Shown here: positions 49,301 through 52,300 of the stretch, piece by piece
Layout: each line of letters begins with the position of its first letter
Numbering within the stretch: the stretch's first letter is position 1
Source of the DNA: Chiloscyllium plagiosum
Lineage: Eukaryota
DNA: 64,000 bases
Reading direction: 5' to 3'
Assembly (NCBI RefSeq): GCF_004010195.1
Contig: NC_057719.1
Coordinates: forward strand, 35,476,107 to 35,540,106
Translations under genes and position numbers: made by a program
Notes under the pieces: generated by a model
Databases searched by the model: none
The model's input: only the letters and a program-made list of their open reading frames with translations
Told to the model about the DNA's origin: nothing

Positions 49301-52300
49301 ATCCAAAACAACAACTCTAACACAAATCTTAAACTCCTGGAAGTATATAAAATTACCAGAATGCTTGCTTGTTGTAGGTGATGTGCCCAAGTTGTAAACA
49401 GATTTTGGCGCATTTGCTGATCAAAGTATCCTGCATAAGCGATGAAAGCAGCTGATAGTAAACAGTCTCCAGCTATAGTGGCCATCTGATTCTTGAAAGT
49501 CTCACTGGTCTTTTCCCAGCGATCTCGTTCAGCAGACAAACTCTTCAGTAGTGCAGTACTTCGGTTAACCTGAAGGAGGATTTTGTGCATTTTATGGATA
49601 AAAGAAACATGATATTTTGAACCCAAATTATCCAAGCTTTAGTTGCTGTCCAACCCACCCTAACTCTTTTAGAAAGACTTACATAACACAGACAGAAGGT
49701 GCATTAGAAAATCTTTACTTAAACATTACTCACCTTCGCTTCTACTGCTGCAAGATCAGCTTTAATAGCTTGGGCTTCAGATATCAGAATAGCATACTCT
49801 TCCTTGTAACGAGCAATACTGGTTTCCAGGTCACGGATCATTTGCTCAACCTCATCAGCCTTCTGCTGGTTCTCTTTTGCATCATCTTCCAGCTTTTGTA
49901 GTTCATTGCGCAAGGGTTCAACTCGTTTTAACATATCAGCATAATTAAGCTACAAAACAAAAGAAATTATATGAAAGTAAAACAATTATGCAAGGTTATA
50001 ATATGTCAAGACAACAGATATTGAGAGAAAAAGAGTGGGAAAAGGAGTGGAAACAAAATAATGATTAATGGATTGTACGACTAGTCCTGATCAAACTTCT
50101 TACATTCTCAAATTACTCACTTGTGCAATTGCCCACTTCACCATTGGACCACAAGCCAAAGATGCTCTGTTGACTATTTCATAGTTGTAGCTTGGATTGG
50201 ACATGTAGTTTTTCTTCATCTTCTCTCGGATAACATCACTGATGAATAAAGATGAACAATATTAATATAGCTAATCTCTTAAGTTTATGGATGCAAATTT
50301 CACAATTGATACAGCACTACAAAAAAAAAAAGGTGCCAGTTATAAACTAGGTGGTGCACAGCAATGAAGAGCAGCAATAGAGTCAAATGCAAGATAAATG
50401 TGATATTTTAAAATTAAAATAATGAATACCTTAATTCTTCAGTATTAAAGTTGACTATGCTGGTGATGAAATTATCTCTGATAATAACTTGTCTGATCTT
50501 TTTCCAGTCATTTGTCTCCTCACCCAGCAGGAGACAGATTGATTCTAAAGCGAGTTTTACTGCAGCAGGCGGATTGGCCATAGCTCTCACTTCAACAAGA
50601 TGCTGCTTCTTTATAGAGCTCACAGCTAATAGAGGGGTGAAAAGAAAGGGGCTTTAAATGGACATGCAAGAGGATAAAGGTGTACACAGTTGCTGGGACT
50701 GGAGGGGAAATTTGTAATCTGAAGACCAGCAGTACATTTAGTCAGACAAACTTCAAATTTGTTTGCTTAATAAATGCTACATCAAATAGGAAATTCTATT
50801 TATGGCCAACTGTTATGCAATTTTTCTTCAGCTTCAAGCTGGTCTTCTAGGAAATTTCCTTTTACTCCAGCAGCTGTGTGCACCCCATTATTCACCTGAT
50901 TTCGTCAGCTGAAAAATTTACTATGGTCGGTATGAAGTTTTCCCTCATAATGATCGAACGGATTTGTTTCCAGTCAGTTGTACTTTCGCCCAGGAGAAGA
51001 CAGATTGACTCGAGTGCTAGCTTCACTGCACCTGGCGGATTAGCCATTGAACGAACCTCTACCAAGTGCTGCTTCTTGATCGATTTTACAGCTAATCAGA
51101 CCAGCACCGTAGACCAAAGTGCAAGTAAGCAGTAAGAGAAAAAGTGAAGATTAGGGGAGACAGAAAATTGAGATAAAAAAATCACATAGAAAAGATCAGT
51201 TAGTCAGTTGTTTAAAAAGGCAGAAAATTAATAGGTTCATAGTTCCAAAATATAAAGTAAACAAAATGTCACTAAAGATAGCAATTCAGCATACTAGACC
51301 AATTTCAAAGATTTTTTTTAAAAAAGGTTGCAATTTAAAACACATCTAACCATTCTGAGCCTCAATAACAGCAGGCTCTACCATATCCAGATCTTCCTTT
51401 ACTTTCATCTGCTTGTCAGCAATTATTTCTTGTTGTTTGTGAAGCTGCTCCTGAATTTCCTGGCTCATAACCTATCAAAACAGAGCGAAAGGTATCTTAC
51501 TTGATCAATTCTATTCTGAACTGGAGTTTAATGTCAATTAAAGTGTCCTCTCTTTCAAATTACCTTCTTCTTTTCTGCTTCTTGTTGATCTTTCACCATT
51601 TTCTTCAACTTATCATTGGCTGCTGCATTTTTAACCTCCAGTTCTTGGCTTTTAATTCTCAGATCACGCCGTAATTCTTCAACCTAGAATGAGTAAAAGG
51701 ACTTTTTATTTTCAGGTACAAATTATTAACAGAGCAAATTTATGAAGTCTGACAATTTATTGTATTTCCACAGTATCACCTTTAAATAGTATCCCAGGTT
51801 TATAAAATATATATTTGCCCAAAACAAAATTTGTCAGAATTCTTTGGTGTGCTGTTCAAATGACTTTTTGTTGATGCAAAAAGTCTAAGGAGAACATTTA
51901 TGAAATCCTTAAAAAGGGCAATGAAGAGTCAAGAGTGACAAAAAGAAGTCATGTTGGATTTAGAAGAATATGTAAAACTTTAGTCATCTTTCATTGCTGA
52001 AATTGCAGTTTAATCTATAGCACAGAATATAAAGATTAAACAGATACAATGCAGGAGGAGATAAAGAGAATTTTTGGCCATCGTTACTGGTAGATTATAA
52101 CTAGTTAATAGTAGTATCGGAATTACTTTTTTTTAAGCCAAGTCACATTCAGAAACAAAATCACTGCTCAATCCGCTTACTTGCCCTCAAAGTAGGACAA
52201 ATTAATGTAAATGGAAGCTTGGAATCACAATTTTCATTAAAACATTACACAAATTTAGTGAGATTCATGGATTTGCTAACTGTACCTGGTCAACTGTTTC

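Follow-up and report, generated by a model that had tools for sequence, protein, structure and literature searches.

A 178-nt zone free of sense-strand AG precedes exon A, the upstream member of a tandem exon pair in the cytoplasmic dynein-1 heavy chain gene (DYNC1H1), and our reading, held with a probability of approximately 0.58, is that this zone extends the 3' splice site of an exon that is regulated and not the default choice. Exons A and B of the pair are homologous mutually exclusive exons: they are equal in length and phase, both are joined to the flanking exons, and no joint between them is listed in the four RNA runs examined. The exon that is governed matters more than the layout of its splice site, as the choice between A and B swaps 16 of 64 residues of the microtubule-binding domain.

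The DYNC1H1 exon pair and its RNA evidence

The minus-strand region of the window (the whole 64,000-nt stretch of DNA that was analysed) is identified by similarity as DYNC1H1 of the cartilaginous-fish type, the best-matching named DYNC1H1 proteins being those of cartilaginous fishes. A total of 42 acceptors of this gene were mapped using tblastn with three homologues; the positions were refined by script and six of them were corrected by hand. The exons and introns around the pair are as follows.

51351..51471, minus strand: exon preceding the pair, with the last part of stalk coiled coil 1; it ends in phase 1 (tblastn; joints 51351/50625 and 51351/51091)
51092..51350, minus strand: 259-nt intron preceding exon A (present unspliced in RNA contigs)
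50896..51091, minus strand: exon A (196 nt), encoding the first half of the microtubule-binding domain (RNA joints; protein match)
50626..50895, minus strand: A-B intron, 270 nt (present unspliced in RNA contigs)
50430..50625, minus strand: exon B, 196 nt, paralogue of A (spliced in 4/4 RNA runs)
50121..50238, minus strand: downstream exon, entered in phase 2 from A or B (RNA joints; tblastn)

Exons A and B agree over 196/196 nt in length, begin in phase 1 and end in phase 2, and share 70% of their nucleotides and 48 of 64 residues, with 27 codons synonymously different. Regarding human DYNC1H1, exon A is identical to residues 3296-3359 at 62 of the 64 positions, and exon B is farther from the human protein.

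Of 24 listed runs, four were chosen for alignment to positions 49650-51750: a raw single-cell run and a contig set (both with the same species label) and the contig sets of two relatives. That the contig sets are RNA is a guess, borne out by their spliced joints. The joints upstream-B and B-downstream were found in all four runs, A-downstream in two and upstream-A in one (it is absent from the X3 listing). Two runs contained only B, and two contained A and B in nearly equal amounts, with A-downstream versus B-downstream depths of 87.9 versus 90 (X2) and 179.4 versus 261.2 (X3), contig depth being a poor measure of expression. Neither an A-B joint nor a joint skipping both exons was listed in the four runs, three of which are contigs, which drop rare forms. 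Exon A is sample-variable and exon B was found in every run examined (n = 4); the first-pass annotation, which had treated A as one of two mutually exclusive exons of varying use, is borne out by the presence of spliced A in 2/4 runs.

In X1, one continuous contig (50597-51364) runs through both ends of A at a depth of 9.67, compared with 47-64 for spliced B; because this contig is unbroken, spliced A was not assembled in X1. A 35-nt partial match of X1 at the edge of the B-downstream intron continues as unlike sequence. The raw single-cell run, weak at 21 reads in total, yielded three upstream-B joints, one B-downstream joint and zero depth inside exon A. No back-joint was listed among these 21 polyA reads, a number too small to be informative on lariats. 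The two introns flanking A appeared unspliced in all three contig sets (depth about 10-12), and the interior-bin depth of the other three introns was 0.

The acceptor region of exon A

The elements recognized ahead of exons A and B are listed below, with distances counted from the respective exon.

51094..51271, minus strand: AG-exclusion zone, 178 nt (sense AGs at 51093-51092, the acceptor, and at 51273-51272)
51199..51206, minus strand: best branch-point candidate UGACUAAC, A at 51200 (-109) (motif match; also a QKI/SF1-type ACUAAC)
51150..51156, minus strand: competing branch candidate CCCUAAU, A at 51151 (-60) (immediately followed by the 20 nt richest in pyrimidine, 90%)
51110..51198, minus strand: U-rich pyrimidine tract, 76% pyrimidine (composition)
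51092..51111, minus strand: pyrimidine-poor acceptor-proximal stretch and AG of exon A (composition; RNA joint)
50663..50668, minus strand: UGCAUG, 43 nt before the acceptor of exon B (motif)

It had been reported earlier that no sense AG occurs from 51094 to 51271, that a near-consensus branch site with its A at 51200 lies about 108 nt before the acceptor, and that the sequence just before the AG is poor in pyrimidines. All three observations were reproduced: 178 nt separate the flanking AGs, the branch site reads GACUAAC and is placed at -109, and the last 18 nt contain 56% pyrimidine, which is among the five lowest values of the 42 acceptors. The position of the acceptor is fixed by a spliced contig (joint 51091/51351).

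The zone is the longest AG-free run on the minus strand of the window, with an AG-to-AG spacing of 180 (next 148 and 131), and the longest ahead of the 42 DYNC1H1 acceptors, with 178 nt versus a median of 29.5 (next 129 and 99). Its length exceeds chance: none of 60 first-order Markov simulations of the strand reached 178 (maximum 177, median 123.5), shuffles of the zone itself were without AG in 138/20000 cases, and shuffles of the intron ended in an AG-free run of at least 178 nt in 32/20000. It also lies above the threshold for distant-branch-point exons (at least 150 nt). A zone of 129 nt (49950-50081, minus strand) with seven PTB-type motifs precedes the exon at 49949, two exons downstream, which is apparently constitutive, its intron being completely spliced in the RNA contigs; this speaks against the regulatory reading, in that long zones also occur where no regulation is apparent. 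The second-longest AG-free run of the strand (spacing 148, 57810-57958, minus strand) is intronic, and no acceptor was mapped there.

GACUAAC at -109 is the best branch match of the intron, with 70 AG-free nt further upstream, and CUGAC (-113) and CUGAU (-105) overlap UGACUAAC, resulting in a branch cluster. Further candidates at -178, -137, -60, -42 and -35 are all weaker; those at -42 and -35 are branch-like CUUAC. ACUAAC arose by chance in 502/20000 shuffles of the zone, and about 20% of stretches of 178 nt should contain a 6/7 match to UACUAAC. Taken alone, the motif at -109 would thus be moderately unusual and modest evidence of a branch point.

The description of a long U/C tract with UCUU and CUCU motifs stood in part. 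The tract is 76% pyrimidine and contains seven copies of UCUU, CUCU or UUCU, but these are not enriched (11.3 expected from dinucleotide shuffles; 11986/20000 base shuffles reached seven), and the stretch from -108 to -3 is U-rich (U 0.50, C 0.24) rather than CU-rich. Among the 42 acceptors, seven is the joint highest count, shared with two others, and exon B has six. The acceptor of exon B follows an AG-free zone of only 24 nt and a strong terminal pyrimidine tract (89%, versus 56% for A), with its likely branch A near -30. A hairpin predicted over the acceptor of A was rejected (z = -0.40; 71/200 shuffles fold equally well), and it is absent in the teleost-type locus L029. The sequence CUGACUAAA at 50737-50746 (minus strand), about 113-120 nt before exon B, resembles the branch motif of A in sequence and position; four AGs follow it before exon B, and it is possibly a relic of the exon duplication.

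Proposed mechanism, candidate regulators and known systems

According to the preferred reading, the intron ahead of exon A would branch far from its AG, most likely at 51200 and possibly also at -60. The AG of exon A would be found by scanning from this distant branch point, and AGs would therefore be excluded from the zone. Both the scanning rule and the AG-free hallmark of distant branch points are given in the available part of PMC1431707. The pyrimidine-poor last 20 nt would make the acceptor of A weak, so that the compact and strong acceptor of B would win by default. Exon B would join the downstream exon first and the 725-nt stretch containing A would then be removed slowly, an order suggested because only the introns flanking A were seen unspliced. 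In some cell types the balance would flip to A; neurons are our guess, which we hold at slightly better than even odds.

Exclusivity would result from acceptor competition and from nonsense-mediated decay of products with both exons or neither, not from steric blocking. With both A and B included, the reading frame ends 31 nt into B, and with both skipped it ends 20 nt into the exon that follows; decay can remove these errors because 196 is not a multiple of three and both products stop early. Steric exclusion needs a downstream branch point about 50 nt from the upstream donor. Here the branch candidates of B lie 220-240 nt from the donor of A, within an intron of 270 nt and with an AG-free zone of 24 nt. 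Steric exclusion is inapplicable because of this distance and because the long zone precedes the upstream exon, and the analogy to alpha-tropomyosin drawn in the first-pass annotation fails on the same two points. Decay is listed as a route enforcing exclusivity in section 29 of PMC7969005, as far as its available text goes. Regarding intron-intron pairing of the docking type, only short inverted repeats of 72-87% complementarity were found, which are unconvincing.

The regulator is not readable from the sequence. Judged by their motifs, QKI (ACUAAC) and RBFOX (UGCAUG before B) would be equally plausible as PTB; when weighted, PTBP1 and QKI competing with SF1 at ACUAAC receive the same low standing, RBFOX acting on B a slightly lower one, and all others together somewhat more than any of the three, still well below even odds. 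The PTB-type repression of A proposed earlier is unsupported by the motif counts, neither by the seven copies ahead of A nor by the intron downstream of A, where six were found versus 4.7 expected (p 0.34). In this model, A would be silenced outside neurons by PTBP1, which would occupy the U/C tract and obstruct U2AF65 at the distant branch point, and neurons would use A. This is consistent with seven motifs in 110 nt, the joint highest count of the 42 acceptors, with the lack of spliced A in two of the four runs, and with studied cases that, in the available part of PMC1431707, have regulatory elements between the distant branch point and the exon. However, the count is not above that of shuffles, is equalled at two other acceptors and nearly so at exon B (six), and in the teleost-type loci such motifs number 1 in 84 nt before A versus 18 in 148 nt before B; alpha-tropomyosin exon 3, as far as the available text states, is the default in most cultured cells despite a similar layout. 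Hardly different in probability is a role of QKI, which would exclude SF1 from ACUAAC and repress A where QKI is high, in muscle and other cells that are not neurons, leaving A to be used in QKI-low neurons; QKI at the branch site and its low neuronal level would lead to the same tissue pattern as had been proposed for PTBP1. ACUAAC (51204-51199) is the sole copy in three introns and is identical in organisms B and C. Competition of SF1 and QKI at ACUAA branch sites and undetectable QKI in most neurons are on record in the available part of PMC13004596, although the model case published there requires tandem ACUAAC, compared with one copy here and a CUAAU 50 nt downstream. Against QKI, moreover, chance alone would place the motif there in about 2.5-4% of cases, and the teleost intron of L029 is without ACUAAY.

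The switch might instead act on exon B. Binding of RBFOX before an exon results in repression, and UGCAUG at 50663-50668 is taken by us to be an RBFOX-type motif; repression of B in neurons and muscle would leave A as the fallback, its long zone simply making it the weaker default. This is somewhat less probable still. The motif at -43 of B adjoins the likely branch A near -30, organisms B and C show no listed difference at it, and GCAUG at most 12 nt after the second exon in 5/11 distinct invertebrate tandem loci hints at a general involvement of the family. But it is a single motif noticed post hoc, present in 32/1000 shuffles of the last 70 nt and in 222/1000 of the whole intron; the 148 nt preceding B in the teleost-type locus L001 do not contain it, and the invertebrate motif follows the second exon instead of preceding it. 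None of 11 regions had an excess of NOVA (YCAY) or MBNL (YGCY) clusters, the lowest p being 0.084. It is also unlikely that the zone is a by-product of a short U-rich intron and without regulatory meaning, with A branching conventionally between -35 and -60. Such a reading draws on CUUAC at -35 and -42, on CUAAU at -60 before the strongest tract, on the 129-nt zone at the apparently constitutive exon, and on the amniote-type locus L008, which has A alone and keeps a zone of 64 nt. Shuffles of the zone's own composition are AG-free in only 138/20000 cases, however, the longest of the 42 zones sits on a regulated exon, and the best U2 match lies at -109.

Judged by its elements, the acceptor of exon A would be of the distant-branch type on a mutually exclusive exon, a layout that is already known. 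The NM and SM exons of alpha-actinin are tandem and mutually exclusive, with a distant branch point and a long pyrimidine tract. The distant-branch-point exons of Gooding et al. 2006 (PMC1431707) share the long zone to the first AG (178 nt here), a strong branch motif with an adjacent pyrimidine tract and the alternative use of the exon, but the predicted branch point here lies in the middle of the zone and not near its 5' end; DYNC1H1 is not among the cases in the available part of that paper. Tpm1 exons 2 and 3 likewise are tandem and mutually exclusive, with a distant branch point and a long pyrimidine tract; according to the text available of PMC3643581, the two exons cannot be joined because the branch point between them is so near exon 2, and exon 3 is included by default, as it is in brain, heart and skeletal muscle, with repression in smooth muscle. 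The distant branch point of Tpm1 serves the downstream default exon, whereas here it would serve the upstream non-default exon. OGDH exons 4a and 4b, in the portion available of PMC7969005, are similar in being an ancient vertebrate pair with clustered branch adenines, a U-rich tract and a combined length that is not a multiple of three; they differ in having branch points between the exons near the donor and TIA-1/TIAR and PUF60 as regulators. The exon pair of Schistosoma mansoni DHC1 (Pillmann et al. 2011, PMC3228551; cited by Kollmar 2016, PMC5100056) is also homologous, of equal length and mid-gene, with split codons at both ends, but the encoded domain is unstated in the available text, which is silent on vertebrate cases, on use in tissues and on splice signals.

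Conservation, distribution and protein consequence

Organisms B and C have 3-4 substitutions and two small deletions in the zone, which is still AG-free, and they keep the branch motif and UGCAUG. This conservation has little power, because the differences are few and only 56/534 possible substitutions create an AG. A metagenome scan yielded 79 loci, the taxon labels of which were inferred from peptide similarity. Before A, the zone measures 80 nt in the teleost-type locus L029, where GGUUAAC lies near -85; the teleost-type L001 has more than 146 AG-free and CU-rich nt before B, and the amniote-type L008 has exon A alone with its 64-nt zone. Neither an ACUAAC-type element nor UGCAUG was found in the teleost loci examined (L029 and L001), and the intron of the window did not align with that of L029 beyond chance (33/200 shuffles score as well). 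An alignment of the -60 candidate with the teleost -85 site, using window, teleost and amniote introns, was dropped as the window-teleost similarity is at chance. As to conservation of the zone across vertebrates, a longer-than-usual zone before A is found in teleost (80 nt) and amniote (64 nt) loci, but its sequence and its PTB motifs are not shared; common to the species, by sequence comparison, is a longer-than-usual acceptor region only.

Positions 1175-1279 of L029 (the last approximately 100 nt before A) resemble read-through peptides of five fish-like proteins (P0002, P0011, P0022, P0023 and P0027), a likeness which suggests that the end of this intron is conserved in ray-finned fish; the conserved stretch would include an element with an AG near -100. 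Judged from two fish-like read-through proteins, the A-B intron would be 116 and 170 nt long in their genes. The classical steric arrangement may accordingly exist ahead of B in ray-finned fishes, which is only suggestive as it combines different species. A remnant of exon B is not claimed for L008 (5/200 shuffles reach the score with the B of the window, 59/200 with teleost B).

B-type proteins are annotated in hagfish, lampreys, sharks, rays, bichir, sturgeon, teleosts, frogs, turtles and snakes; the lamprey cluster is B-type in 9/9 members, and so is the hagfish entry (P0141, P0142, P0243-P0250). Database isoforms include Danio X1 (A) and X2 and NP_001036210.1 (both B), Narcine X4/X3 (A/B) and Chrysemys X2/X1 (A/B). 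Bird matches and mammalian PDB chains are A-type only, a sample that is not exhaustive regarding the loss of B. The A exons of named jawed vertebrates mostly match A of the window at 60-64 of 64 residues, and the B exons match its B at 49-64. Turtle 'DYNC1H1-like' entries (P0143, P0233-P0241) include both A- and B-type isoforms, with unusual changes in the A exon, and possibly represent a duplicated gene.

Two tandem copies were present in 14/79 metagenome loci, all of them invertebrate-like, and the exon borders match wherever the loci are complete enough to check. GCAUG occurs at most 12 nt after the donor of the second exon in L014, L017, L027, L030 and L078 (5/11 distinct invertebrate tandem loci). 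In L058, L061, L062/L067 and L068 the tandem exons are only 51-108 nt apart, and their first-exon peptides resemble the mite proteins P0126/P0127; in L062 and L068, branch-like motifs lie some 15-20 nt away from the donor, which is the classical steric layout. In a tree of 48 exon peptides the vertebrate B clade is supported at 99/98 and vertebrate A at 93/85; its deep branches do not separate one ancient duplication from several.

The vertebrate pair is present in automated annotation, and a description of its regulation or function was not found in the literature searched: dynein-splicing papers yielded none (subscription papers and splicing databases being outside the scope), and dync1h1 had no match in the supplements of PMC4494069 (excluding file 1), PMC7954323, PMC9303857, PMC5703972, PMC7969005 and PMC12626424, the tables of which may omit exon pairs.

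The residues that differ between A and B include K3297S, S3331E and Q3337K, and 13 of the 16 differences fall within human positions 3331-3359. For mouse K3298 a numbering offset of two residues was assumed in the exon comparison. Aligned in this manner, this helix-1 lysine appears to be kept in both A and B; it is discussed in the available part of PMC4987762. The mammal-type exon A appears to be the restricted one in non-mammalian vertebrates. According to a scenario that we regard as doubtful, early vertebrates had two dynein-1 feet, B in general use and A (near-invariant in jawed vertebrates) restricted to neurons by silencing via ACUAAC, and mammals and birds lost B and made A universal. 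If true, much of the non-neural dynein of zebrafish and Xenopus would have a microtubule-binding domain unlike the mammalian one found in all solved vertebrate structures that were matched. The curated zebrafish reference protein is B-type, and results on fish and frog dynein may concern a different foot from human work. The site of use of each foot would show whether tissues tune the microtubule affinity of dynein.

Downstream of DYNC1H1 and opposite to it, a 204-codon open frame at 13456-14067 (plus strand) is probably an exon of a neighbouring gene. The plus-strand frames at about 24050-26600 and 33229-33792, in introns of DYNC1H1, are by eye presumably LINE endonuclease- or reverse-transcriptase-like.
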